From positions 1-64,000 of IMG/VR virus record IMGVR_UViG_3300020577_007420: a stretch of DNA of 64,000 nucleotides; one strand, 5' to 3'. How positions within the stretch are numbered: the stretch's first letter is position 1; every line of letters starts with the position of its first letter. A program made the translations under genes and the position numbers. Under the pieces are notes generated by a model. That model did not search any database. It worked only from the letters and a program-made list of their open reading frames with translations, and had not been told where the DNA came from. The stretch is from a virus. Taxonomy: Duplodnaviria; Caudoviricetes. This document shows, piece by piece, positions 1 through 31,627 of the stretch.

Positions 1-3000
1 TGGTGTGCCTTTATACTGAATGAGGATGTAGAGGAGATGCCTATCCATCATAGTAAGGAGAATCTTACTAAAGAGGAGATAGAGATAATCAGAGCTTATA
101 GGAGAAATGATGTGAGGGTAACTGAAAAATTGTTTCAGCTAACCTTAGGTAACGTCGATATTCCTGAGTTAAAGGATTACAAGGGTAAGAACAAGATTCA
201 AGATAGATTCGACGTAATGCAGGAGACTGGTTTACAGTGTCTTAACTGGAGTGATGTAAAGATTGGTGAAGAGTGGAATAAGTTGGATTATATAAAGGAA
301 GAGAATATCTCTGACCCTAGAGATTTGTTCCCAAAGAAGGTAAAACATCCATTTGGTCAGAAGTTTAAGAACTACTTTCCTAAGCACGTTGAATTTGAGA
401 CTGACCAGCTTAAGGAGTTTGTGAAAAAGCTTGGTAATGAGTATGTTAAGAATATTAAGCAGGAATTTCCCATTAAGATAGGGAATACCACTTATACAGT
501 AGCCAAGGGAGGTTTGCATAGTACTGAGAAGCATAGACATATAACTGTACCAGAAGGATTTAGGTATGATGATGAGGATATTGGGTTAAATTGTGGCCCA
601 AGTAAAACCCTTTAAATTGACTGGGACAGCTTTAGAGTTTCATACACTCCCTCAAACAGTAATGATTTGAGTATAGTAAAAGAGATGAAAATTAGCCAAT
701 CAGCAGCCAAGTTACCAAGTTTGGTAAAAGGTTCAGAGACTAAACAGAGGGAATTTTTAACAATTTATTAACATGCATTACTTATCAGTATCCATAGAAT
801 ATCCTATATTGGATATATGAAATTGAGTACTGAACATAAGGGAAAAACTGGTATTTATGCTATAAGGAACAAAAGCAATGGGAAGGTATATATAGGAAAA
901 GCTCTTGATATTTATAGAAGAGTAAAGCACCATATAACAAGTCTCAATACTAAGAACAAAGATGAAAATAGACATCTGATAAATTCTTGGCATAAATACG
1001 GGAAAGAAAACTTTGAGTATTTTGTAGTTGAGTTTTGCAACACAGACGAAATCTCAGAACGAGAATTACATTGGATTAAATCCTTTGATTCTCTTAACAG
1101 AGAAAAGGGATATAACCTAAGACTTGATTCTTCAACTGGATTGGTAGTTTCTCAGGAAACGAGAGAAAAATTAAGACAGGCTCAAATTAAGAGATTTGAG
1201 AACCCAGAAGAGAGAAAAAAGTGTTCTCACACTTTCTGGAAAGATAATCCGGAAAAGCTAAAGGATATGGGTAAGAAAGTTGCAAAATTGAATGTAAGAT
1301 ATAAAATAGAACAAAGTGATAAGATAACAGGACAGATAATAAGGATATGGGAGTCTATTATTGAACTAATGGAAGTATACCCTGAGTATAAGAAGCATAA
1401 TATATATGCTGTTTGTTCTGGAGAAAAACCCTCAATGTATGGTTATAAATGGAAGAAAATTATGATATAGTCCGACCTTACTGGAGACAGTAAGATTAAC
1501 AAGGATATGCACAGTATCCTAATAGTATGGTAAAGTTTGAGATTTGTCCCCCTCACTTAAAGAAGACGTTCCTTCATCAGTATAAGGGCAAGATATCTAA
1601 GAGAATCTCATATAAGAAGACTGCAAAGGATTTGATAAAGGATGGTCAGAAAGAGAAGGCTCGTCCCCTTATGTCAGTTCAGGAGATGCTTAAGCTATGT
1701 CTTAATGGTGGTAATCTGAATTAAAACATAACTTTATTTGGTATTCTTAAAGCATTAGGAGAAAATAAACCATATAAAGGTTTGATTATAAAAGACAGCC
1801 TCCAATAAAAAATCGGATAAATTGCTGGAAACCCCTTAGTGAAAAGGGCAATCAGCAGCCAACCTACTGAATAGTATAAAAGTAAGTAGAAGGTTCAACG
1901 ACTAACTGGTGAGTAGCTAAAACAATAAACCAGACACGAACATCCGACACTAGAAATAGTGATGATATAGTCTGAACCACAGGTATATATAAAGCTGTGG
2001 ATATGAAGGATAAAGAGCCTTCATGATAACAAAATGGGTTACGGTAAGTTAGGACAAAGAGGCTCATTCCTTGAGTATCCGGAAGGTATGCTTAGAGTAA
2101 CTATGGGAAATCAGATGGAGATTCTGATGCTTATAGAAAAGCTAGAAATGTCTGGTTTTCAGGTACTTAGTGGAAACACTGAAACATTGGTGTTTTAAAA
2201 TTTGGTTAATTGCTGGGACACCCTTAGAGTCCTTAAGCTAAAACAAAAGAATGAAATATGTCTAAGTGTAAATGCTTAAAAATTAAGGAATTGGGCAATC
2301 AGCAGGGAAGCTCCGAACAGGAGAACCTTCAACGACTATCCCGGAAGGGAGTACTCTGAAAAAGAGGAAAAGCCAAATATTATACCATCTGTATAAAATA
2401 ATACTACAGATGGTTTGGTAATTTCGTAAAATTTTTGTAAATTAGTAGAAATACTAATTATGAAAATAGAAGTTACTCAAGAAGTTCTAAAAAAATGGGG
2501 AGTTTATAAAATAACAAATATAATAAGCGGAAAATTTTATATAGGTTCCACTATAGAATCCTTTAAAAAAAGATTATCAAAACATATAAGTTGCTATTCA
2601 TTATGGAGTATAGGATTAAGAGATACGTGCGATTGTCCTATCTTATATAATGCTCTGAAGAAATACGGAGTTGATAATTTTAAATTTGAGATTCTCAGGT
2701 GCTTTGAAAAAAAGAAAGAATCAAAAATATGTAAAAAGATAGCTAATTATTTAGAGGAAAAATATATAAATAGCTTATCTCCAGAATATAATATTTGTAG
2801 ATTACCTACGCTGTCAGGCTGTCCAAATCTTGGTAGAAAATTATCGCAAGAATGGAAAGACGCTATAGCTAGTAAGTCTAAATTGTATAAACACTCAAAT
2901 AACCAAAATATATATCTAAATAAAAAACAGCAAAATAAAGATTTAAGTTCTATATATGAAGTAACGAAGGGAGGTAAAGTGTTTAAAGGTTCTGCAGTAG

Positions 3001-6686: not shown

Positions 6687-9535
6687 GTGAATTTGATAAA
6701 CTTACGCAAGAGGTAGCTGATGGTATGCAGGGTAAGAATGAAGCTATCCCAATTGGACTACCTAGACTAGGTAAATATGCCAACTGGAGGAAGAGAATTT
6801 TTACATTACTATTTTCATCTACTGGTGCTGGTAAAAGTAGCCTTGCTGATGATATGATTCTTAACGCCTGTGAATGGTGTATAAAGAATTCAAAAACAAC
6901 AGGAAGGAAGATTAAATTTATCCTTTTCTCAATGGAGAGAGCAAAACATTACCGAATAGCAAAGTGGGTAAGCAGGAGGATATTTCTTGATGAGGGATTG
7001 GTTATACCTATTCCCAAACTGCTTGGTTGGTGGCATGAAAAGCTAACAGACCAAGAATTTGAGTTATTCTCAAGATATAAGGATTATGTTGAGGCACTAC
7101 TTGAGGAGTACATTGATATATATGAGGGAGCCAGAAGTGGCCCGGATATATACCGTATTCTAAAGGAGTACTTTGAGAAAAATGGGGAGTATAAAACTCA
7201 CCCTGACAATCCCTATAAGAAGATTTATATCCCTGATGACCCTAACATCATTGTTGTTCCTGTAATAGACCACGGTAACCTTACTAAGAGAACAAAGGAG
7301 TATCCTACTAAGAAACAAGCAGTAGATAATCTTTGTGAGTTGATGCAGGGATTCCGTGACTTGGAGGGAGCATCTCCCTTCTGGATTGCTCAGGTAGGTA
7401 GAAGTATCTCTAATCCATTGAGATTGAAGGATACAGAGGCAGAATTGACACTGGATGATAAACTAAAATAAATTTGGAAATGTCGTCTAGAAGTGTTAAA
7501 TTAATCTAGAAATAACACTTATAGATATATGCAAAAGGAAAAACACACTGCAAAGTATGCAGAAATAGAAGCTCTTTGGAAAGAAGGAAAAAGTAGAAAT
7601 TTTATAAAGGAAAAGTTTGGATTAAGTTCCTCAATAGTTCATACTATACTTAAAAGACTTAATCTAGAAAATAAACCTAAAAGGTCAGTAAATCTTACTG
7701 CTCATCAGAAAAGTGTCTTGATTGGTACTATATTAGGTGATACACATATATTGAAAGGTAGTAAGTTTACAAGTAGTATTAATTTTGCTCACTGTGAAAA
7801 ACAGAAAGATTTTTATGATGGCAAAGTTGAAATACTTAGCTCATTAGGTATATCTTATAATAAAGAACATAACTATTTTGATAAAAGAACAAACAGATAC
7901 TACAAAAGATATGTTTTTACATCGCATAGTTGTATCGAGCTTAAAGAATTACGTTATATATTTTATCCAGATGGTAAAAAAGTTCTGCCTATAGAATATC
8001 TGAGAGATAATTTTAATATAGTGTCTTTAGCTTACCTTTATATGGATGATGGAAATACATCTAAGTATAATACTATAATTTCTACACAATCTTTTGATTT
8101 AGAAAATCTTAAAGATTTTGTCTTGTTGTTAAAAGATAAATTTAATTTAGATTTTACCATACAAAAAAATGGTACAATAAGATTAAAACAAAAAGATGTT
8201 CCTAAATTTAAAGAATTAATAAAAGAAGAAGTTTCTAAATTTCCTTGCATGACATACAAACTTTAATGTCATCTCTAAACTCCGTTAAACGGGGAAAGTC
8301 TGTAGTGAAACAGATAATCCCGTGCTAAATTAAGTAGGAATACTTATAAATGCCTAACGACTAGTAAAATCATATTTTAGTACATCAGTAAATAATTACA
8401 AAGATGGAAGAATTGAATAAAGAGCAAATTTTAGTTTTAAATCTTTGTTTAGGAGATGGACATTTAAAAAAAGATTACACAATTTCTTTTGTACACTCTC
8501 CTAAGCAGTTGGATTATCTTAATTACAAAAAAGAACTATTAGAAAAAACAGAGTCGTTTAAACGAGCAACTGGAAAAAAGACAATTGGGATTAAATCCTA
8601 TATTACAAATTTTGAAGGTAAATCGTTTTTACAATATAGGTACTCTCTTACTAAGGTAAGTATTGTAAAACCTGTTTATAATCTATTAGTAAAAAATGGT
8701 AAAAAGACAATCTCAGAGAATATAATTAAATACTTCAATTTACAAACATTAGTCTTTTTGATGTTTGATGATGGAGGAGAAGTACGAGCCAAAAAAAGAA
8801 GGTATTCAATTAAAAGGAATATTGAATATATTTATAATGAACCACCTTCTTACAGGCTTAACACTCACTCTTTCTCAAGAGAAGAAAATGTGTTAATCAT
8901 TCAATGGTTAAAAGATATGTTCCAAATTGAAGGAAAATTGTATTTAAATAAAGAAAGGTTTATTATTAGATTTAATTCTAAGGAAAGTTTGAAAATTTGG
9001 AATCTTATTAAAAGTGAAGTTTCCAAAATTGATAGTATGAAAATCAAATTTTCTTGGAGTATTCAAAAATATGGTTTGCAGTGAGTCCAGACCGGACAAT
9101 AAAATCTGCCAAGAAAGCGGGGGAACGCCTTAGAAAGGACGAAGATATAGTCTGAACCATAGATATATGTAAAACTATGGATGTGAAAGATAAACAGCTT
9201 TCACGATAACAAAAATGGTTAAAGAATCAGGTGATATGGGAGATGCCTGTGATATTGCATTGTCATTATTTGACCCAGTTAAGTATAAGCAGGGCAGTAA
9301 AACAGGTTATAATCCTATGGAGTTTCTTGACAAAACAAACGGTGCAAAATATTTTAGAAGTATCCAGATATGTAAATCATCTTATGGTGAGGATGACCTA
9401 CGTATACCTTTGGCTTTCAATGGTTTCTGTGGTCAGTTCAAAGAATTACCAAGGAGAGATTCTCTATCAGATGGAGCACTTCACTCATTAGTAGAAAGTG
9501 TGAAAGATAGGTCATTCTTTCTACAACAACCATAA
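6683..9535 (+). CDS. dnaB: DnaB-like replicative helicase; exons 6683..7459 and 9218..9535
   Basis: Walker A SSTGAGKS; AQVGRS motif. Splicing restores ELTLDD-VKESGDMGDACD (DnaB-type motif). Confidence 0.85.
7529..8266 (+). CDS. LAGLIDADG homing endonuclease (first ORF of intron 4)
   Basis: LIGTILGDTHI and LAYLYMDDG motifs; N-terminal HTH-like segment. Confidence 0.82.
   Translation: MQKEKHTAKYAEIEALWKEGKSRNFIKEKFGLSSSIVHTILKRLNLENKPKRSVNLTAHQKSVLIGTILGDTHILKGSKFTSSINFAHCEKQKDFYDGKVEILSSLGISYNKEHNYFDKRTNRYYKRYVFTSHSCIELKELRYIFYPDGKKVLPIEYLRDNFNIVSLAYLYMDDGNTSKYNTIISTQSFDLENLKDFVLLLKDKFNLDFTIQKNGTIRLKQKDVPKFKELIKEEVSKFPCMTYKL
8404..9084 (+). CDS. LAGLIDADG homing endonuclease (second ORF of intron 4)
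   Basis: VLNLCLGDGHL and LVFLMFDDG motifs. Confidence 0.82.
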   Translation: MEELNKEQILVLNLCLGDGHLKKDYTISFVHSPKQLDYLNYKKELLEKTESFKRATGKKTIGIKSYITNFEGKSFLQYRYSLTKVSIVKPVYNLLVKNGKKTISENIIKYFNLQTLVFLMFDDGGEVRAKKRRYSIKRNIEYIYNEPPSYRLNTHSFSREENVLIIQWLKDMFQIEGKLYLNKERFIIRFNSKESLKIWNLIKSEVSKIDSMKIKFSWSIQKYGLQ

Positions 9536-23921: not shown

Positions 23922-26353
23922 ATGAATTGGTTTAAAACACTGTGGCTTTCCTCTGAGGAAAGAGAAATCCTTAGAAAAGCAAAAAACAACGAGTTAGTAG
24001 AGAAACCTTCTCCACTCTCAGCACTTATACCTGAGGATATGTATAAGAAACCGTACCAGAAGATTATCTATTCTAATGGTACTGTGACAGTTATCTTTAA
24101 TGATGGGACTACAATTAGTAAGTCCGGGGTGGATGCTCTCTTTCTGGATAGGGTAAAGAATGCATATTCTCAATATGCAATTGAGGAAATGATGGTGAAT
24201 AAGCAGCCTGAGCCTACTAAACAGAATATTGAGACTGAGGAAGAGAGGAAGATTGTCTCAAACAATCTTGGAATATTTGATAAGAATCCTGATTTCACGG
24301 TATCTGGTAATCAAGTATTTCTGAAAGGTGTAAATCTGGCAATGCCAGCAGTTGTTGCTGCAAGTTTTATTGAGATTCTTGAAAAGATGCAGTATGGAAC
24401 ACCGACTCCTACTCTTACAGACCAGCTTCAGGCTCTGAAGATGTTTTGGCTTAAGCTGGCACTGAACAGTCTTCCTCAAAGCAGGGAGGATTTGCTTGCA
24501 TTTGTAAGGAAGAATGATGTAAGAATTACCAGAAATGGTAACCTTATTCTGTACAGAAGAATTGTTAGTAAGGGGAATACCGATAAGGAACTGGTTACCT
24601 ATGTAACTCAGGAGTACTATCGTATTAAGAAGAACGGTCTTGACCCTCGTGAGTACGCAATCTATAAGCTTGATGGTAAGTATGGAACTATTGATTTGAA
24701 GACATATGACCCCTTCAATAAGCCTACTGATATCATTCCTTTCTGCAATCTGCAGCAGATGTATCTTGAGTTACCTACTTACGATAGCAATGACTTTACT
24801 GCATGGCATGGTAGAGGTACATCAATTAAGTTGGGTGGCATTTACCGCATTCCTGAGGACGAAATTAATCTAGATAATAGTATCTGCGCTGCTGGTGGGC
24901 TAAGATGTGTGGCCTCTCTATAAGTAATTATGGAGTAATAAATCGAGCAAATTCGATGAAGTCTAAAAATAAATTTGTTTATGTGGTGGTAATTATGTAT
25001 ATTTAATTATGAAAAAATATACAAAAATTACTAAAGAATTAATAGATAAAGTCGTTCTTTTAAATAAAAATGGTCATTCCTATAGTGAAATAGGAAAGAT
25101 TTTAGAATTATCCTCAGTAAGGGGAATTCAAAATTTTATAAGAAAGAATAAGATAAAGTTTGTTAACAATTCCTCTCTTATAACAATAAGGGATAAAAAA
25201 TACAAAAGCCAAGATGATTATTTTGATATAATAGATAATCATAAAAAGGCATATATATTAGGATTTATTTATAGTGATGGGTGTGTTTATGACAATAAAA
25301 GATTTGGATTTTGTATATCCGAACAAGATTCTGAAATCTTAGATTTTATAAGACAAGAAGTTTGTCCAAATAAACCCTATAAAGTAATAAATCACTTAAA
25401 TAAAAAACCTCAGGTTGTATTAAGAATAGGAAATAAAAGAATTGTTAAAACACTTATTGAGAAGTGGGGAGTTGTTCCTAATAAAACAAAGAATCCAAAA
25501 TTGGTATTCCCAAAAATAGAGGATTCTTTTATATGGTCTTTTTTACGAGGAATTGTTGATGGAGATGGTCATATAAGAATTAGAACAACTAAATCATTTT
25601 ATGTAGAAATATGCATGTCAGACTTAAATTTTCTATCTGATTTACAAAAATTTCTAGATAAGAATAATATGAAATCTAAAATAAAAACAATAGTTGGTAA
25701 AACTTGTAATTATTATAGAATATATATTCCAAACTCAATAACTTTTTTGAATAAACTTTATGAAAACAAAGACTTTTTCTGTTTAAAAAGAAAACTTCAT
25801 AAATATTTAATTATTCACGATAATATCGAGCTAACTTCTTCAATTACGAAAGGTGAAGAAGTAGTGTAACGCATAGAGGATGAATAAATATAATTCCTCC
25901 ACGAGTGTTCGACATCCTTATAAATAGGATGAAAATATATGCTGAACTTTAGAGAAATCTAAAGAACTAAAGGATAAAAAGCCTTTAGGTTAACAAATTT
26001 GACATGCTGCAGCTGTAGATTATGATTATTCTGGATTTGGAGACGTTCCTGTTGTAGTACTGGTAAATCCCTCAAAGGCTATTACTGTTCCTCTTGGGGA
26101 AACAGGAAAGCTGAGAACTACTGAGATGTTTGTTGCTTGTGTAAACGACAAACCCCATGGTACTCACTTTGATGAGAGTGCTATTGCTGCATTTGATGAA
26201 GAATATCATGATTTGACACTGGAAGAACTTGAGGAAGCTGCAAAGACAAAGAACTTTAGCAACCTGTCTGTTCAGGATAAAGTTCCTGCAATTTCTCTTG
26301 TAGACCTTAACCAAATCAGACAACTTCTGAGGAGCAGGATACAGAAGGTTTAA
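23922..26353 (+). CDS. rIIB: rIIB-like protein; exons 23922..24901 and 26002..26353
   Basis: ITRNGNLILYRR motif; splicing restores CAAGG-L-HAA (rIIB-type C..GLH motif), in frame with track ORF 26126..26353. Confidence 0.75.
24902..26001 (+). mobile_element. Group I intron 6 in rIIB
   Basis: P1: GGGCT pairs with GGCCT. P4 TTCGAT/ATCGAG and P7 GCATA/TATGC; ends ...AACAAATTTG. Confidence 0.82.
25009..25869 (+). CDS. Intron-encoded LAGLIDADG homing endonuclease with N-terminal HTH
   Basis: AYILGFIYSDG and FLRGIVDGDG motifs; promoter TTTG-N20-TATATTTA at 24974-25005. Confidence 0.88.
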   Translation: MKKYTKITKELIDKVVLLNKNGHSYSEIGKILELSSVRGIQNFIRKNKIKFVNNSSLITIRDKKYKSQDDYFDIIDNHKKAYILGFIYSDGCVYDNKRFGFCISEQDSEILDFIRQEVCPNKPYKVINHLNKKPQVVLRIGNKRIVKTLIEKWGVVPNKTKNPKLVFPKIEDSFIWSFLRGIVDGDGHIRIRTTKSFYVEICMSDLNFLSDLQKFLDKNNMKSKIKTIVGKTCNYYRIYIPNSITFLNKLYENKDFFCLKRKLHKYLIIHDNIELTSSITKGEEVV

Positions 26354-26361
26354 TGATTAAG

Positions 26362-26393
26362 AAGTGCCCATGGTTATTCTGTGGGCACTTTTT
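26362..26393 (+). terminator. Intrinsic terminator
   Basis: AAGTGCCCA-loop-TGGGCACTT followed by a T run. Confidence 0.8.
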
Positions 26394-26406
26394 TAAATTT
26401 AATATT

Positions 26407-27120
26407 ATGAGAATCATAGCATTAGGTGATATACATGGTCACAAATCGTGGAAGGATATTGTAAACAATGAGCAATTTGATAAGATTGTATTTGTTGGAG
26501 ATTACTTTGATAGTTTTACAGTGAAAACTGAAGACCAAGTAAATAACTTCCTTGATATAATTGAGTTTAAGAAATCTAGACCAGATGACGTGATTCTCTT
26601 AATAGGAAATCATGACCATCATTATTTTCCCTTTGTAGGATATACTGGTACATCTGGTTATCAACAAGCAGGTAAGTTCTTAATAGAACCTGTACTTAAC
26701 GAGAATAAGGACTATCTACAAATGGCTTATCAATTTGATAATGTGCTATTTACACATGCTGGGTTTAGCCCTCTGTGGGCAGGTGCTGTTTTAGGAGACG
26801 ATTGGGAAAAAGAATTGACAGGAAATTATGCGGATTTGATTAACGATATATGGCTACATAAGCCAAAAGCATTCTGTCATAACGGAAGGGACCCATATGG
26901 GGATGATAAATACCAGACTCCTATCTGGATACGTCCAAGAGCATTGATGTATATAGCAAGACCTATTAGCAGGAAGATAATTCAGATAGTAGGTCATACT
27001 TACCAGAACCAGATTGACATAAAGGGAAAATCTACAGGAGGAAGATACTATTTTATTGACTGTCTGCCAAAAGAATACCTTATCATAGATAATGGTAAGT
27101 TTGAGGTAGGAAAATTATAA
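26407..27120 (+). CDS. Calcineurin-like metallophosphoesterase
   Basis: GDIHG, GDYFD, GNHD, THAG and GHT motifs; ATG start at 26407. Confidence 0.85.
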   Translation: MRIIALGDIHGHKSWKDIVNNEQFDKIVFVGDYFDSFTVKTEDQVNNFLDIIEFKKSRPDDVILLIGNHDHHYFPFVGYTGTSGYQQAGKFLIEPVLNENKDYLQMAYQFDNVLFTHAGFSPLWAGAVLGDDWEKELTGNYADLINDIWLHKPKAFCHNGRDPYGDDKYQTPIWIRPRALMYIARPISRKIIQIVGHTYQNQIDIKGKSTGGRYYFIDCLPKEYLIIDNGKFEVGKL

Positions 27121-27122
27121 CT

Positions 27123-28226
27123 ATGAGTAAGAAATCGTTTCCAATTTTATTTAAATATGATACAAGAGGGAGAATACAGCAGTGGCAAATTCATGTAAAG
27201 GATGACCATTTTTGGACAGAAGAGGGTATAAAGGGAGGTGCAATAACTACCTCTCTACCAACCTATTGTAAAGCAAAGAATATAGGAAGGGCAAATGAGA
27301 CTACTCCTCAGGAACAGGCACTAGCTGAAGCCCAATCTAAGTGGCAGAAGAAAGTAGATAAGGGATATAATGAAGTCCTGACAGATAAGAAGAAGTTTTT
27401 CGAGCCTATGCTGGCTCATGAGGTAAGCAAGTATGAGAAGCTACTGTTTACTGTACCTACTTTTATACAGCCAAAATTAGATGGACTTAGATGTATTTCA
27501 CAAGATAATACACTGATGTCCAGAAATGGGAAGCCGTATTTGGCATGTCCACATCTACATCAGGATAGGTTTACGTTGGATGGTGAACTGTATAATCATG
27601 AGTTCCACGACGACTTTAATAAGATTGTGAGCCTGTGTAAGAAGCAGAAACCCACAGCCGAGGACCTAAAGGAAAGTATGCAGAAGGTACAGTTCTGGGC
27701 CTATGATATGCCTGAGATTGAGGGAGAGTTCTCTGAGAGATATAAGGCTCTTGAGAAGGCTATCAATGAGTTAAAGAAGGCACAAGGAAAGTGTCCCTAT
27801 AAGTTGGTTCCTACATATCGTGTTCATAATCAAGCGGATGTGGAGAAATATCACGAGAAGTTCCTTGAAGATGGATACGAGGGTTCTATCTTACGTCTTG
27901 ATTTGGGAGAATATGAGAATAAGAGAAGTAAGCAGTTATTGAAGAAAAAGGACTTTGTGGATGAAGAATTTACAATCGTAGGGGCAGAAGAAGGCGAAGG
28001 AGGCAGAGCTGGAACAATTGGTTACTTTATTATGGCACACGATAAGATTAAGGATAAGACCTTTAAGTCAAATGTCAAGGGAGACTTTGAGTATCTGGCA
28101 GAGGTTTGGAAGGACAGGAAGAAATATATAGGCACAAAAGCTACAGTAAAGTACTTTAACAGGACTCCAGATGATGTTCCTCGGTTTCCGTATATTATCA
28201 AACTAAACAGAGAAGAATATGAATAG
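27123..28226 (+). CDS. lig: ATP-dependent DNA ligase with N-terminal WGR-like domain
   Basis: QPKLDG (KxDG), SRNGK, LDGELY, EGSIL, LLKKK and PRFP motifs. Confidence 0.9.
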   Translation: MSKKSFPILFKYDTRGRIQQWQIHVKDDHFWTEEGIKGGAITTSLPTYCKAKNIGRANETTPQEQALAEAQSKWQKKVDKGYNEVLTDKKKFFEPMLAHEVSKYEKLLFTVPTFIQPKLDGLRCISQDNTLMSRNGKPYLACPHLHQDRFTLDGELYNHEFHDDFNKIVSLCKKQKPTAEDLKESMQKVQFWAYDMPEIEGEFSERYKALEKAINELKKAQGKCPYKLVPTYRVHNQADVEKYHEKFLEDGYEGSILRLDLGEYENKRSKQLLKKKDFVDEEFTIVGAEEGEGGRAGTIGYFIMAHDKIKDKTFKSNVKGDFEYLAEVWKDRKKYIGTKATVKYFNRTPDDVPRFPYIIKLNREEYE

Positions 28227-28647
28227 TGTAATAGCAGCCGATGTTAATTCTCTACTACAGACAACGGGAGGTACTATAGTATCTCCCGTTTACGTTGGTA
28301 CAGTTAGTACGAGTTTACAGTATGTTGTTCCTCAACCAACAACTACGCCTCCGCCCAAAAGAAGGTTGACGGGTAAACCTAAAGGTAAAACGGAAGAACA
28401 ACAGAAGGAAAACATAAGGAAAAGAGTAAGCTATAGATGGATTGTACAAGAAGCTCAGTATTTTAGAAGTAAAGGAGTCCCTCTGCACTCAATTTCTGTA
28501 GTAATGAAGTATATCATTGAACTAAGATGTTCGTACAAAGGAGGATTTGCCTATAATTCTAATAGGCATTGGGCAAGACAGAGTCTTTATTTGTTCCTTG
28601 GGGATATTAAAGACCATAAAATGGTAGAAGAACTTAAACTTAATTAA
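28219..28647 (+). CDS. Hypothetical protein
   Basis: ORF track. Confidence 0.55.
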   Translation: MNSVIAADVNSLLQTTGGTIVSPVYVGTVSTSLQYVVPQPTTTPPPKRRLTGKPKGKTEEQQKENIRKRVSYRWIVQEAQYFRSKGVPLHSISVVMKYIIELRCSYKGGFAYNSNRHWARQSLYLFLGDIKDHKMVEELKLN

Positions 28648-28649
28648 AT

Positions 28650-28922
28650 ATGAATAATTTAAAAGTAGGAGATTTAATATACTTTAAGGATTACTTCTGT
28701 GAGATTTTTGCTATACAACCTGATAAAAGTGGTGAGTCTCGTTTTGATATACTTAAAATTCACAGAAAGTATAGAAGTGATGGCACAAAAATGATGTCCA
28801 TTTGGACATCATGGGTATATAGGTGCTGGGTAAAGTCACCTGATGAGAAGTTTGACGATGAAATTAAAGAACGTATTCAATTATTAGAAATCTATAAAAA
28901 TTTAACAAGTAAAAAATTGTAG
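28650..28922 (+). CDS. Hypothetical protein
   Basis: ORF track. Confidence 0.55.
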   Translation: MNNLKVGDLIYFKDYFCEIFAIQPDKSGESRFDILKIHRKYRSDGTKMMSIWTSWVYRCWVKSPDEKFDDEIKERIQLLEIYKNLTSKKL

Positions 28923-28923
28923 T

Positions 28924-29043
28924 ATGAGTACAAAATTATATATAGTAGTAAAAGCTGATACAAAGTTTTGGAAAGGAAAAAAGTTTTCTGAAGAACATAA
29001 ACAAAACTTAAGAAAACCAAAAATAAGAAAGAATGCAAAATAG
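28924..29043 (+). pseudogene. 39-codon ORF containing a NUMOD3-like endonuclease remnant
   Basis: Reads MSTKLYIVVKADTKFWKGKKFSEEHKQNLRKPK...; KGKKFSEEHK is NUMOD3-like. Confidence 0.45.
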
Positions 29044-30223
29044 ATATGTCAAACTTATTATGGTTGATGAAAATAATCGAAATAAATACTATGAGATGAA
29101 TTGGGATGGTGGCAGTAATTTTACAGTAAAGTACGGCAGAGTTGAGAGCACTACGCAGACTGCCACCTACCCCTATAGTAAGTGGTCATCCAAGTATAAT
29201 GAGAAGATTAGGAAGGGGTATAAGGATGTTACAGATTTAGTTTCTGTAAAAGTTGAAGAGAAGAAACAGGAGAAGGAGACATTTGCAGCTATCAAGGATA
29301 GGTTGGTAAATGAATTCCTCAACTTGATGAAGAGCTACACAGATAAGCTCGTAAAGGCTACGTATAGTGTTAAGGCTGAGGCAGTTAGCCAAAAGCAGGT
29401 AGATGAGGCACAGAAGCTCATTGATGAAATTAATGCTATGGATGCCAAGCTGGTTAGTAATATTAACCAGAAGTTAACAGAACTGTATATGGTTATTCCA
29501 AGATATATGGGACATGTAAGAGATTACTTGCTTCCTAATATCAGTCTGGCCAAACATATGCAACAGGAGCAGGATAATTTAGATGCCATGGCTGCTCAGG
29601 TTAGCATGATTAAACCTAAGACCAAGAAGGAGTTAACTGCCGAGAAAAAGAAGGCACAGACTCTTCTTGATAAGTTAGGTATTACTAATATGAAGGAGTG
29701 TAGTGGTGTTCCTAAAGAGGTGGAATATCTTATTAAGCAAAATCATGGTAGAAAGGTAAATGCCATATTTGAGTTGGAAAAACCAACAGAAGATGCTATC
29801 TTTGAGAGCTGGATGAAGAAACAGAAGAATAAGAGTACTCGTATTCTTATTCACGGTACACGCTGTACCTCTGTCATTCCTATTCTAGAGATAGGATTGA
29901 AGATTCGTCCTACTGGTAATTTCCAGTTTAGTGGTAAGGCATATGGAGACGGTAACTACTTCTCAGAACATATGCACAAATCATTAGGGTATACGGGTTA
30001 CGACGCTGATAAGGTCATACTTGTATATGAAGTACATACAGGTAATCCCTTTACATATGATGGATGGTTTAGAGGAAACTCTTTCCCATTGAATTATAAG
30101 GAGCTATCTAGTAGAGGATATGATTCTACTTATGTAAAAGCTGGTCATGGTCTTATGAATAGTGAGATTATTGCATACAAAGAGGAACAAGCAAGAATTA
30201 AATTTATCATTTGGTTAACCTGA
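29033..30223 (+). CDS. Poly(ADP-ribose) polymerase-like ADP-ribosyltransferase (WGR, regulatory helical and catalytic domains)
   Basis: WGR-like N-terminus (KYYEM...YGRV...KIRKGY); LYMVIP helical segment; IHGTR, GKAYGDGNYFS, KSLGY and NSEIIAY motifs give an H-Y-E triad. Confidence 0.88.
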   Translation: MQNRYVKLIMVDENNRNKYYEMNWDGGSNFTVKYGRVESTTQTATYPYSKWSSKYNEKIRKGYKDVTDLVSVKVEEKKQEKETFAAIKDRLVNEFLNLMKSYTDKLVKATYSVKAEAVSQKQVDEAQKLIDEINAMDAKLVSNINQKLTELYMVIPRYMGHVRDYLLPNISLAKHMQQEQDNLDAMAAQVSMIKPKTKKELTAEKKKAQTLLDKLGITNMKECSGVPKEVEYLIKQNHGRKVNAIFELEKPTEDAIFESWMKKQKNKSTRILIHGTRCTSVIPILEIGLKIRPTGNFQFSGKAYGDGNYFSEHMHKSLGYTGYDADKVILVYEVHTGNPFTYDGWFRGNSFPLNYKELSSRGYDSTYVKAGHGLMNSEIIAYKEEQARIKFIIWLT

Positions 30224-30226
30224 TTA

Positions 30227-30258
30227 TTTGGTAAATTCAAATAATTTTCGTATATTTG
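30227..30258 (+). promoter_or_regulatory. Bacteroidota-type promoter
   Basis: TTTG-N20-TATATTTG, matching the -33/-7 consensus. Confidence 0.8.
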
Positions 30259-30277: not shown

Positions 30278-30931
30278 ATGTACAAAAAGAAAATTACCAG
30301 TAAACTATCAGATTTAACAGGTCAAACCTTTGGAAGACTTACAGTTATAGGAATAACCTACTCAGAAACTCTTAAACATAGAGTTTGGGAATGTAAATGT
30401 AAGTGTGGAAAAATAGTAGGTGTTCCTTCAACTTCTCTTACCAAAGGTAGAACTATGTCTTGTGGGTGTTTGAGAAACGAAAATGCACCTAACATCAACC
30501 GTTCTCATGCAGATACAGGAAAGGCTATCTACAATAGGTGGCTTGCAATGAGAAATCGTTGTAAGCACAACAAAAAATACTATGTTGATAGAGGTATTAC
30601 AGTCTGTAAAGAATGGAATGACTATCTGAACTTCAGGAAAGATATGGTTGAGAGCTTCTTGGTTCACAGTAGGGAACATGGTGAGAGAAATACAACTCTT
30701 GAAAGGATAGATTCTAACAAAGGATACTACCTTGAGAATTGCAGGTGGGCTACTCCAACTGAGCAAAACCAGAATACAAGGACTCCCTACAAAATCACCA
30801 ATTACAAGAAGCTAAAAGTTTTCCTACAAGAGTTAGGAAAGCTAAAAGGTATACAAATAACCCTCTCAGAAGAGGAATTTTTAACACTTTCTTATAACAT
30901 AAGGAAGAAAATTTATAAAGAGAAGAATTAA
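30278..30931 (+). CDS. Free-standing HNH-family homing endonuclease
   Basis: FGRLTV, CKCKCG and SCGC motifs; TLERIDSNKGYYLENCRWAT. Confidence 0.8.
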   Translation: MYKKKITSKLSDLTGQTFGRLTVIGITYSETLKHRVWECKCKCGKIVGVPSTSLTKGRTMSCGCLRNENAPNINRSHADTGKAIYNRWLAMRNRCKHNKKYYVDRGITVCKEWNDYLNFRKDMVESFLVHSREHGERNTTLERIDSNKGYYLENCRWATPTEQNQNTRTPYKITNYKKLKVFLQELGKLKGIQITLSEEEFLTLSYNIRKKIYKEKN

Positions 30932-31627
30932 ATGAAAGTAAAAATTGGCACTGAGGTGCAAATAATGAGACCGTTCAAAATATTCCGTCAACTTAATGAT
31001 GGAAGCTATGATGCATGTGATGCACATGGAAATTGTCTCAAAGTAAACCCAAATGAAATTAACATTTTAACTAAAAATCAATCAGAAATGAAAGCAATGA
31101 AAGATGCAGTGCTCAAAGTAGCACGAGACTTAGCAAGGGCAAACAACACAGTTACTACTCTGGAAATCAAGACAGAATTGAGGAGAGATTATCCCTACTA
31201 CTTCTGGGACCAAGCAACTGTAAGCAATTATATGGCTCAGTTGGCAGGTGATGGTATCTTTAACTACACAGACAATGGTACATACCGCACCTATAGTCTG
31301 GCTAAGACCCCTGCAACTAAGACTATATCAAGTGCAAAAACACTTAATATAGTTGTTACAAAATCTCTTGGAGTGAGTGGTAGTGCAGGTGTAGTTGGTA
31401 CGGCTGGTACTAAGAGTAAGAAGAAGTCTAAGAATGTAGTTACGAGAAATAGTGTTATACTTTTCTCATGTAGTCCAAAATTTGAGTCAGTGACTCTGGC
31501 AAGTGGAAAGGTAGTGGATAAACACACTATCCGTGGCCAGAAGAAATCTCCTGAAGGATACATTACTCCTAAACTGCATAATGTTACGGCAATTACAGTT
31601 AATGGAATTACTTATCAAGTTCAGTAA
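30932..31627 (+). CDS. Hypothetical basic protein
   Basis: ORF track. Confidence 0.65.
   Translation: MKVKIGTEVQIMRPFKIFRQLNDGSYDACDAHGNCLKVNPNEINILTKNQSEMKAMKDAVLKVARDLARANNTVTTLEIKTELRRDYPYYFWDQATVSNYMAQLAGDGIFNYTDNGTYRTYSLAKTPATKTISSAKTLNIVVTKSLGVSGSAGVVGTAGTKSKKKSKNVVTRNSVILFSCSPKFESVTLASGKVVDKHTIRGQKKSPEGYITPKLHNVTAITVNGITYQVQ

Follow-up and report, generated by a model that had tools for sequence, protein, structure and literature searches.

What does a poly(ADP-ribose) polymerase (PARP) with a sensor, a regulatory and a catalytic domain do in a phage, and on what does it act? The question is raised by a gene in a 64,000-nucleotide stretch of DNA ('the window'), positions 1 to 64,000 of the IMG/VR virus record IMGVR_UViG_3300020577_007420. 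The source is a large uncultured phage, probably of a Bacteroidota host; no GenBank phage matched the region by megablast. A phage PARP is not new as a kind: there are a homolog in phage phi4:1, a protein family (PHROG 23333) and two papers (PMC4245714, PMC7824862). Table 1 of PMC8120803 enters as unknown what prokaryotic and phage PARPs modify and which physiological roles they have. What is new here is that one small DNA-binding gene, for a winged-helix (wHTH) protein, stays with the PARP across phages and also in bacterial chromosomes with unrelated flanks. The reading we favor, at a probability of roughly 60%, is that of a PARP that senses nucleic acid through its WGR domain, is gated by its helical domain (HD), belongs to a two-gene module with the wHTH protein, and acts at phage DNA. 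Its basis is fold, domains, catalytic residues, conservation and gene linkage.

Table 1. The PARP locus in window coordinates; aa positions are those of the encoded proteins
Feature	Position	Strand	Description and evidence
Calcineurin-like metallophosphoesterase	26353..27120	+	Pfam Metallophos 43.9 bits; abuts ligase
ATP-dependent DNA ligase	27123..28226	+	Pfam DNA_ligase_A_M 56 bits; PHROG 114 257 bits
PARP gene	29033..30223	+	396 aa, ATG start, WGR-HD-ART architecture; ORF, Pfam, PHROG, AF2, Foldseek, VIA
WGR domain	29033..29236	+	aa 1-68; Y34-G35-R36 replaces W-G-R
Helical (regulatory, HD) domain	29285..29677	+	aa about 85-215
ART catalytic domain	29678..30220	+	aa about 216-396
Catalytic-domain residues	H274 29852-29854; Y309 29957-29959; Y320 29990-29992; E378 30164-30166	+	
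HNH homing endonuclease	30278..30931	+	PHROG 374 'HNH endonuclease', E 3e-53; inserted between PARP and partner
PARP partner	30932..31627	+	231 aa; winged helix at aa about 49-125, after a small N-terminal beta domain; wHTH models, gene linkage
Partner linker			aa 128-164; disordered, Ser/Thr/Lys-rich; AF2 model
Partner C-terminal domain			aa 170-231; beta-rich; AF2 model

The enzyme and its predicted fold

A preliminary description, made from the letters alone, had placed a PARP with WGR, regulatory and catalytic domains at 29033–30223, and the open reading frame lies exactly there (Table 1). To judge by sequence and model, its product is a true ADP-ribosyltransferase of the kind of PARP1-3 and the bacterial PARPs, and is probably active. 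Pfam PARP (PF00644) matches residues 228–338 with 56.5 bits (cutoff 26.7), and PHROG 23333 matches the ORF at 241 bits. In a phmmer search the catalytic fragment of chicken/human PARP1 aligns with residues 117–341 (E 1.4e-8), with H274, Y309 and Y320 in register. A profile of the family finds PARP2 at E 6.6e-36; WGR and HD+ART both align, the catalytic Glu is in register, and on PARP1/2 chains the alignment spans residues 77–395, up to the last residue but one of the 396. The H-Y-E triad of the preliminary description (reference: PARP1 H862/Y896/E988) is thus recovered in two steps, H274 and Y309 against PARP1 by phmmer, and E378, paired with the catalytic Glu of PARP2, by the family profile.

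The motifs on which that description relied are all present and align as it proposed. LIHGTR pairs with LLWHGSR, GKAYGDGNYFS with GYMFGKGIYFA, and KSLGY with KSANY in the phmmer alignment to the PARP1 catalytic fragment, and the helical segment LYMVIP pairs there with FYTLIP of the PARP1 helical domain. At the C-terminus MNSEIIAY pairs with PARP2 NYNEYIVY in the family profile, but the pairing is absent from single-sequence searches. The N-terminal WGR domain, also proposed at the outset, lies below threshold in Pfam (17.8 bits, cutoff 22) but is backed by the family profile (i-E 0.027 to the PARP2 WGR) and by structure, since model residues 1–68 superpose on the PARP1 WGR inside the whole-chain alignment described next. 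For the helical domain, Pfam PARP_reg (PF02877) is not significant (E 0.64); six helices occupy residues 90 to 203 of the AF2 model, and the HD helices have pLDDT above 90.

The AF2 model as a whole has pLDDT 91.9 and pTM 0.89, with low confidence in the D-loop region, residues 295–300. Comparison of a predicted structure with PARP1-3 had been proposed as a check, and the model superposes well. Its best Foldseek matches are PARP1/PARP2 WGR-HD-CAT chains on DNA breaks, and VIA lays residues 1–396 on residues 550–1006 of DNA-bound PARP1 (Z 26.5, rmsd 3.5 Å, 357 residues aligned), with residues 85–396 on 662–1006; PARP2 superposes at Z 23.3. Taken together, the sequence and structure matches lie far outside what chance would give.

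Among 76 diverse homologs, down to about 30% identity, H274 and Y309 are each present in 76/76 and E378 in 74/76. G275 and Y320 are likewise invariant, as are N17, K18, Y20, G35, R36, K58 and Y63 of the WGR domain. Conservation of H274, Y309, Y320, G35, R36 and E378 reflects purifying selection on function. In the family-profile alignment about 25 residues directly before the catalytic Glu are deleted relative to PARP2, so that the acceptor site probably differs from that of PARP2.

The preliminary description called this protein 'eukaryote-like', which is misleading: its architecture, size and Y-G-R are those of described bacterial PARPs, among which Y-G-R is the usual form of the WGR motif (PMC5966428), and its nearest cellular relatives are in the Bacteroidota. 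Nor do such genes occur 'only sporadically' in prokaryotes and phages, an estimate that proves too low. The family is abundant, very large, and common to phages and Bacteroidota: it comprises at least 291 clusters at 50% identity (E ≤ 1e-30), it is matched by 192 IMG/VR stretches, hundreds of metagenomic copies of the gene are intact, and annotated copies occur in Cellulophaga, Xanthomonas and Klebsiella phages.

The winged-helix gene and its linkage to PARP

The most informative feature of the locus, missed by the preliminary description, is the conserved gene for a wHTH protein downstream of the PARP. This partner is found near the PARP in 42 of 82 viral loci, in most loci on the same strand at a gap of 0–30 bp, and it accompanies every PARP of the window's own clade (26/26) in a tree from a quick IQ-TREE search. 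The linkage holds as PARP identity falls from 61% to 31%, phi4:1 gp030 included. Because the partner follows at 0–30 bp in most related loci, the HNH gene that lies between the two in the window is an insertion that splits the pair.

Within the phage clade this linkage may stem in part from shared ancestry and synteny. A profile search of genome contigs with a 12-sequence PARP alignment yielded 36 Bacteroidota loci, and in 27 of these the wHTH core lies directly downstream of the PARP, on the same strand (E 1e-14 to 1e-23). No gene other than the wHTH recurs in the 36 flanks, which are otherwise unrelated. PARP and wHTH gene thus appear to constitute a two-gene module, common to Bacteroidota chromosomes and their large phages; our literature search found no description of the pair. 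A small wHTH gene could, alternatively, be merely an operon autoregulator.

The wHTH fold is predicted with confidence (pLDDT above 90 for residues 60–125 of the AF2 model). By VIA it resembles the DNA-binding domain of FurB (Z 10.7, rmsd 2.0 Å, 74 aa), with many other wHTH chains at Z 9–10, and Foldseek returns proteins of the BlaI/MecI/ArsR/Fur kinds at E 4e-3 and weaker. Matches to wHTH domains fill the whole-model fold searches, which return none to the C-terminal domain. The partner belongs to no Pfam family; it matches PHROG 33401 and PHROG 2267, both function-unassigned, the second of which also matches its relatives. Its profile has no meaningful match among PDB sequences, an ESM Atlas feature search gave no usable match, and PADLOC and NCBIfam match neither PARP nor partner. 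A candidate identity for the C-terminal domain is WYL_2 (PF10902), an Sm-like SH3 barrel: two relatives match it below threshold, at E 0.008 and 0.05, the window protein itself giving no match, and it is present in 58% of the members of the structural-neighbor cluster in the ESM Atlas (TM 0.42/0.53). In some proteins the wHTH is fused to other domains, to WGR in L090 and L095 and to SWIB in P0302, and these fusions link it to DNA or chromatin.

The wider surroundings are less constant. The PARP lies in an early, same-strand gene block, with exonuclease VIII-like, DNMK and RecA genes also nearby. The metallophosphoesterase resembles SbcD/PdeM-type models only faintly, far below threshold, and its order with the ligase recurs in locus L003. 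Several phage lineages, phi4:1 included, have a DNA ligase gene no more than 2.5 kb from the PARP, but at a limit of 8 kb a ligase is present in just 24/82 viral loci and in 0/36 bacterial loci. The link is patchy and confined to phages; a 'phosphoesterase-ligase-PARP repair module', considered for a time, was dropped on these counts and the genes kept as context. Upstream of the HNH gene, about 20 bp from its start, is a TATATTTG box (30251–30258). The window contains 93 copies of the Bacteroidota −7 box TANNTTTG, against 77 ± 9 expected, which does not amount to enrichment, and there is none on the plus strand just upstream of the PARP.

How the pair might act

What follows on activity, dependence on DNA, length of the chains, targets and any contact between PARP and partner is inference. 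In the favored reading, the WGR domain would be an N-terminal sensor of nucleic acids, coupled through the autoinhibitory helical domain to the H-Y-E ART domain. By analogy with the bacterial enzymes HaPARP and CdPARP, binding of the WGR domain to a DNA discontinuity would unfold the helical domain and so open the NAD+ site, leading to automodification and to modification of DNA-associated proteins. The product would most likely be short or linear chains of ADP-ribose; the triad is no guarantee of polymer synthesis, since PARP3 and PARP4 possess it and yet are mono-transferases (PARP4 is so named in PDB titles). The wHTH protein would be a DNA-targeting or regulatory subunit of the PARP, or else its main substrate. 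The early DNA-metabolism genes around the PARP, among them RecA, an exonuclease VIII-like gene, the ligase and the phosphoesterase, suggest a role for it at nicks and ends of phage DNA or at intermediates of replication and recombination.

A narrower proposal is plausible, if short of probable: that this is a dedicated two-component ADP-ribosylation system, with the wHTH protein as targeting/activating subunit or principal acceptor, whose product is reversed in sister lineages, possibly on DNA, by a DarG-like macrodomain. In a sister phage clade a gene for a DarG/TARG1-like macrodomain overlaps the start of the PARP in 19/19 cases, with DarG as best match (PADLOC E 2.7e-14, NCBIfam 2e-11); the PARPs so linked are about 33% identical to that of the window. 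In the window's own record (76 kb, completeness about 60%) neither Macro (PF01661) nor bacterial PARG (PF10021) has a match; PARG_cat_C (PF05028) has none either, but its control also gave no match, so that result is uninformative. Pfam Macro is barely sensitive to PARP-linked macrodomains, and the search was repeated with a dedicated profile: it matched nothing in G000 or in relatives of 90% and 76% completeness, and weak macro-like matches turned up in two more distant relatives. ARH and Macro were found in none of five related records. Absence of an eraser, in records that are incomplete, is unusual for a reversible signaling system; the host could supply one.

A one-way modification of the host predicts just such an absence, and this brings us to the alternatives. 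Phage ADP-ribosyltransferases commonly serve takeover or anti-defense, T4 Alt, ModA and ModB and AcrIF11 being examples, and the window PARP, too, might modify host RNA polymerase, translation factors or defense proteins, with the WGR domain as a generic anchor. The early, same-strand position of the gene suits that role, which Iyer et al. proposed for jumbo-phage PARPs (PMC7824862). We nevertheless consider it unlikely. Many Bacteroidota carry the PARP-wHTH pair on the chromosome, in unrelated flanks, and therefore its function is not intrinsically host subversion; the conserved WGR and helical domains point to regulated, ligand-gated activity rather than to a constitutive effector; and the PARP has no similarity to the R-S-E type of phage enzyme.

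Might the acceptor be nucleic acid, instead? Terminal phosphates at nicks and ends would then be modified, as by PARP2 and PARP3 in vitro, so that phage termini are marked, capped or protected until ligase and phosphoesterase act. The architecture is that of PARP2/3, the ligase and metallophosphoesterase lie within 2 kb, a ligase recurs in several phage lineages, and DarG, which the sister-clade macrodomain matches best, is a DNA ADP-ribosyl glycohydrolase. DNA ADP-ribosylation by PARPs is reportedly established in vitro. DarG/TARG1-type macrodomains also remove protein-linked ADP-ribose, however; the macro-linked clade is distant from the window's lineage, in whose searched records no such macrodomain turned up; and ligase linkage, nil in bacteria, could be plain synteny of DNA-metabolism genes. 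We regard this as a doubtful alternative, somewhat behind host takeover.

NAD+ depletion is a common logic of abortive infection, and a compact two-gene module in variable chromosomal flanks, shared with phages, is typical of mobile defense genes. The WGR domain might sense incoming linear ends and the PARP drain NAD+, for defense in bacteria and superinfection exclusion in phages. But neither protein matches a PADLOC model, defense genes do not recur in the bacterial flanks, the autoinhibitory helical domain is conserved, and a lytic phage that drained NAD+ from its early block would harm itself, all of which makes a suicide module very improbable. That the protein is a silent relic, or a purely structural DNA-binding protein, is scarcely credible: activity has so far been shown for two bacterial enzymes only, and the D-loop is poorly modeled, but the triad and the NAD+-site glycines are invariant across homologs at 30–60% identity, and the gene persists intact in its many metagenomic copies.

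Should the pair indeed be a dedicated two-component system, the wHTH protein would correspond, in prokaryotes, to the accessory modules by which PARP1 binds DNA or to a substrate resembling histones, and would give a first concrete handle on the substrates of prokaryotic and phage PARPs. The window leaves the identity of the enzyme unchanged; it adds a hypothesis that can be tested in the culturable Cellulophaga baltica / phi4:1 (gp031, gp030), and that bears on break-sensing ADP-ribosylation outside eukaryotes and on its use by phages on their own DNA ends.

Comparison with known systems

T4 Alt, ModA and ModB are also phage-encoded, NAD+-dependent ADP-ribosyltransferases. They are R-S-E (cholera-toxin-like) mono-transferases devoid of WGR and helical domains (PMC8120803), whereas the window PARP, with its H-Y-E triad and PARP fold, belongs to the diphtheria-toxin/PARP class. 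The preliminary description was right to set the two apart. Human PARP2, PARP3 and the C-terminal module of PARP1 share the three domains and their order with the window PARP, and their catalytic residues align, at about 20–22% identity. The window PARP differs from the human enzymes in having no zinc fingers, BRCT, N-terminal tail or HPF1 context, and in its shorter WGR domain with Y-G-R.

Of the same organization, by their published descriptions, are HaPARP of Herpetosiphon aurantiacus and CdPARP of Clostridioides difficile CD160. These, too, are WGR-helical-ART proteins of ~400 aa with an H-Y-E triad and a Tyr first in the WGR motif, and Pfam PARP_reg often fails to recognize their helical domain. 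They are the only prokaryotic PARPs for which PARylation has been shown (PMC5966428, PMC8120803): HaPARP requires DNA and makes PAR, and CdPARP, assayed with activated DNA, PARylates itself (PMC8120803, PMC5966428). The genomes of their bacteria include a DUF2263-type PARG, which undoes the modification, whereas none was found in the phage record or the relatives searched. The papers on these two enzymes (PMC5966428, PMC8120803) mention no partner gene.

The chromosomal pairs of Saprospiraceae, Flexithrix dorotheae, Flavilitoribacter nigricans and other Bacteroidota have PARPs 30–36% identical to that of the window over the full length, and no ligase or macrodomain nearby. Their partners are mostly bare wHTH proteins of about 90–105 aa that lack the linker and C-terminal domain of the phage protein; two are WGR fusions.

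Among phages, the nearest described system is that of phi4:1, a Bacteroidota phage of ~145 kb. Gp031 of phi4:1 / phi17:2 (Lightbulbvirus), annotated 'poly (ADP-ribose) polymerase', is 34% identical to the window PARP over residues 1–395 (E 5e-62), and Perina et al. (2014) include it among viral PARPs, its triad being conserved (PMC4245714). The arrangement differs in detail: in phi4:1 the ligase is downstream of the PARP rather than upstream, a CCA-type nucleotidyltransferase is upstream, the pair is unsplit by HNH, and the partner has 154 aa instead of 231. The order there is gp031, directly followed by the partner-family homolog gp030, then DNA ligase.

PARP gene and its predicted fold

The preliminary description placed the PARP gene exactly (table below). 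Pfam recognizes the catalytic domain (PF00644, residues 228–338, 56.5 bits against a threshold of 26.7), and scores the other two domains below threshold: WGR, residues 11–66, at 17.8 versus 22 bits, and the helical domain, PARP_reg, at E 0.64. In direct phmmer searches, the only PDB sequences with a meaningful E-value are PARP1, PARP2 and PARP3. The alignment with the PARP1 catalytic fragment covers residues 117–341, and hence the helical domain as well; in it, LIHGTR falls opposite LLWHGSR, GKAYGDGNYFS opposite GYMFGKGIYFA, and KSLGY opposite KSANY, the motif correspondences given in the preliminary description. Single-sequence searches did not reach the C-terminal strand that carries the proposed glutamate, and for this reason an alignment of 76 diverse homologs was built and used as a profile. 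Against full-length PARP2, this profile gives E 6.6e-36 in two stretches—WGR (13–73, i-E 0.027) and helical plus catalytic (77–395, i-E 1e-29)—and aligns PARP2 LNYNEYIVY with the family motif LxNDEiivY. The glutamate claimed for the H-Y-E triad is in register with that of PARP2. E378 is kept in 74 of the 76 sequences, and H274, G275, Y309, Y320, G35 and R36 are invariant.

The AlphaFold2 model made from the same alignment (pLDDT 91.9, pTM 0.89) finds its top Foldseek matches in the PDB among WGR-HD-CAT chains of PARP1 and PARP2 on DNA breaks (4dqy_C, 7s6m, 6x0l; E about 1e-18). VIA-align superposes residues 1–396 on PARP1 550–1006 (Z 26.5, rmsd 3.5 Å, 357 aligned residues), and residues 85–396 on the catalytic fragments of PARP1–4 (Z 23–25). 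Given these superpositions, all three of the domains proposed earlier—WGR, helical (HD) and catalytic (ART)—are real.

Features of the PARP region of the window (nucleotide positions unless residues are stated)
Feature	Position	Strand	Details
LAGLIDADG homing endonuclease	25009–25869	+	PF14528, 49.7 bits; upstream in block
Metallophosphoesterase and ATP-dependent ligase	26353–28226		2 bp apart; order kept in relative L003
Small ORF	28219–28647		142 aa; no Pfam or PHROG match
Small ORF	28650–28922		90 aa; no Pfam or PHROG match
PARP	29033–30223	+	ATG start, 396 aa
TATATTTG	30251–30258		Bacteroidota-type -7 box, about 20 bp upstream of HNH start
HNH homing endonuclease	30278–30931	+	Free-standing; PHROG 374, E 3e-53
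Winged-helix partner	30932–31627	+	231 aa
Partner, winged helix	residues ~49–125		AF2
Partner, linker	residues 128–164		AF2; disordered, Ser/Thr/Lys-rich
Partner, C-terminal domain			AF2; beta-rich

A winged-helix partner in phages and bacteria

When all ORFs less than 8 kb from the PARP were clustered in 82 loci (80 from IMG/VR, the window, and phage phi4:1), the commonest neighbour proved to be, not the ligase, but a family without Pfam annotation: the winged-helix (wHTH) protein of the window. An HMM finds this partner in 42 of the 82, on the PARP strand in every case and mostly starting 0–30 bp past the PARP stop. The linkage spans PARP identities from 61% to 31%, phi4:1 gp030 included. 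In the window's clade, the partner accompanies 26 of 26 non-redundant PARPs, a count from a quick tree in which relatives share labels, so these are not 26 independent events. We found no description of the pair in the literature.

The ORF of an HNH homing endonuclease, and thus a mobile insertion, separates the two genes in the window and in its nearest relatives. It sits exactly between them, the partner's ATG following directly on the HNH stop, and it recurs in two 97%-identical relatives, L003 and L004. Together with the LAGLIDADG gene, it shows the phage to be rich in predicted mobile endonucleases.

As a check independent of phages, the phage-derived partner HMM was applied to 36 PARP loci in bacterial assemblies. 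In 27 of these, it picks out a single ORF (E 1e-14 to 1e-23), which in each case lies just downstream of the PARP and shares its strand. Of the nine partner-less loci, at least three (L102, L106, L116) stop at or just past the PARP, and four (L110, L111, L113, L116) encode PARPs of ~765 aa with a TPR-like N-terminal extension. In these Microscilla-type proteins, which have no wHTH gene downstream, the extension is ~365 aa long with weak TPR-like matches, and is possibly an alternative regulatory solution. If antisense ORFs within the PARP itself are set aside, the 36 bacterial flanks have no other recurrent gene.

Phage and bacterial partners have in common a ~75-residue core with the signature TTLE[IV]K..LR..Q..[IV]S..M..NG..R.Y, in which K80 and Q94 are invariant among 60 unique sequences. 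The AF2 model of the window partner has a pLDDT of 78 overall, and above 90 in its folded parts. VIA aligns its wHTH with FurB (Z 10.7, rmsd 2.0 Å, 74 aa), Foldseek matches it to BlaI/MecI/ArsR/Fur, and the C-terminal domain gives sub-threshold pointers to WYL_2 only. The partner wHTH is fused to WGR at two Bacteroidota chromosomal loci (L090:7127-8164, 27.6 bits, and L095:7319-8272, 25.8 bits; cutoff 22), and to an N-terminal SWIB/MDM2 domain in the phage-contig protein P0302 (76 bits). Such fusions tie it to predicted DNA or chromatin functions. Another phage-contig protein, P0325, is likewise a SWIB/MDM2–wHTH fusion.

Starting from the observed fold, residues and gene linkage of the PARP, we favor, at a probability of roughly 0.6, a regulated H-Y-E ADP-ribosyltransferase that would be gated by its WGR domain, would work with a dedicated wHTH DNA-binding partner, and would act on DNA-associated targets during phage DNA metabolism. 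That the PARP serves instead as an effector of host takeover or anti-defence seems doubtful, and is weakened by the chromosomal copies in bacteria.

Gene neighbourhood, macrodomains and other readings

The PARP lies inside a long same-strand block of a 76,379-bp IMG/VR record estimated to be about 60% complete. Its neighbours are, by Pfam, a LAGLIDADG endonuclease, a metallophosphoesterase, an ATP-dependent DNA ligase and GP88, along with an exonuclease VIII-like protein, a dNMP kinase and RecA. The phosphoesterase resembles SbcD only very weakly, as it does the ligase-associated PdeM model (19 bits, cutoff 150). Two small ORFs occupy the ~753 bp between ligase and PARP (28226–28978), in place of which L003, otherwise 96–98% identical, has ~75 bp, an apparent indel polymorphism; L003 also has ~180 bp extra between the phosphoesterase and ligase genes. 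Several phage lineages have a ligase less than 2.5 kb from the PARP, and in phi4:1 a single gene lies between the two, but a ligase is present within 8 kb in just 24 of the 82 viral loci and in none of the 36 bacterial; its proximity is suggestive, as context only.

A separate, fully supported clade of phage PARPs, 31–36% identical to that of the window, has a macro gene in 19 of 19 members; it is seen at loci L040, L050-L052, L056, L058-L066, L069, L071-L072, L076, L078-L079 and L081-L084. This gene, of ~140 aa and sometimes with an N-terminal extension of ~95 aa, runs over the start codon of the PARP by 3–18 bp, ending at about 7965–7990 in full-flank loci. It matches macrodomain PF01661 (22.7 and 22.5 bits versus 22); of the more specific models, DarG fits it best, both in PADLOC (E 2.7e-14) and in NCBIfam (2e-11, a score that falls far short of the cutoff set for that model at full length). 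DarG/TARG1-like macro and PARP form a predicted translationally coupled writer–eraser pair. The window's record, at that ~60% completeness, has no macro gene of this type, and neither have two closer relatives (90% and 76% complete); weak macro-like matches come from two relatives with about 57% PARP identity.

The DarG-like macro of the sister clade, and the nearness of the ligase, hint at ADP-ribosylation of DNA ends, which we regard as unlikely. An NAD+-depleting exclusion or defence module is more improbable again, there being neither a PADLOC match nor a defence context. Conservation contradicts an inactive relic, which we scarcely credit. As observation, then, the preliminary description—a PARP with WGR-HD-ART and an H-Y-E triad—is confirmed, and its interpretation is supported in part. 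The part worth follow-up is the conserved PARP–wHTH module, here split by a homing endonuclease.

Relation to known PARPs

PARPs have been described in four dsDNA viruses, Cellulophaga phage phi4:1 among them, of which all but one conserve the full triad (Perina et al. 2014, PMC4245714), and in a few jumbo phages (Iyer et al. 2021, PMC7824862). In reviews, bacterial PARPs comprise WGR, helical and ART domains; activity has been demonstrated only for those of Herpetosiphon aurantiacus (HaPARP, DNA-dependent) and Clostridioides difficile CD160 (CdPARP), and the targets are unknown (PMC8120803, PMC5966428). What we infer of activity, DNA dependence, chain length, targets and partner contact comes from these two and from PARP1–3.

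PHROG 23333 ('polymerase') matches the window PARP end to end (241 bits). More than 600 matches occur in a 90%-identity collection, many with the PARP name from JGI; clusters at 50% identity number 1546 at E <= 1e-3, 794 at E <= 1e-10 and 291 at E <= 1e-30, and IMG/VR holds 192 confirmed stretches. A family of this size contradicts the earlier remark that such genes occur 'only sporadically' in prokaryotes and phages. The window PARP is one more member of an already known kind. The nearest cellular homologs (30–36% identity) are almost all from Bacteroidota, the likely host group. A 99%-identical partial copy of the phage PARP (P0023, hypothetical protein at NCBI), on a 1-kb contig assigned to a 'Nitrososphaera sp.' MAG, probably reflects faulty binning and not a PARP of archaea. 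On a 212-kb viral contig (L026:7992-9248), the PARP reads as two ORFs of 234 and 181 aa, 7 bp apart, which could reflect a frameshift, a sequencing error or a split gene.

Compared with PARP1 and PARP2, the WGR motif of the window PARP is Y-G-R; tyrosine holds the first position in 54 of the 76 aligned homologs, and is the commonest residue there among bacterial PARPs (PMC5966428). Compared with PARP2, ~25 residues are absent directly before the catalytic glutamate, and for that reason we leave poly- versus mono-transfer uninferred. Phages of Xanthomonas and Klebsiella have weaker homologs that carry an annotation, and one Stenotrophomonas phage has a homolog that carries none. Of cultured phages, the nearest relatives are phi4:1 and phi17:2 of Cellulophaga (about 145 kb), in both of which the gene, 34% identical over its full length, is annotated as poly(ADP-ribose) polymerase.
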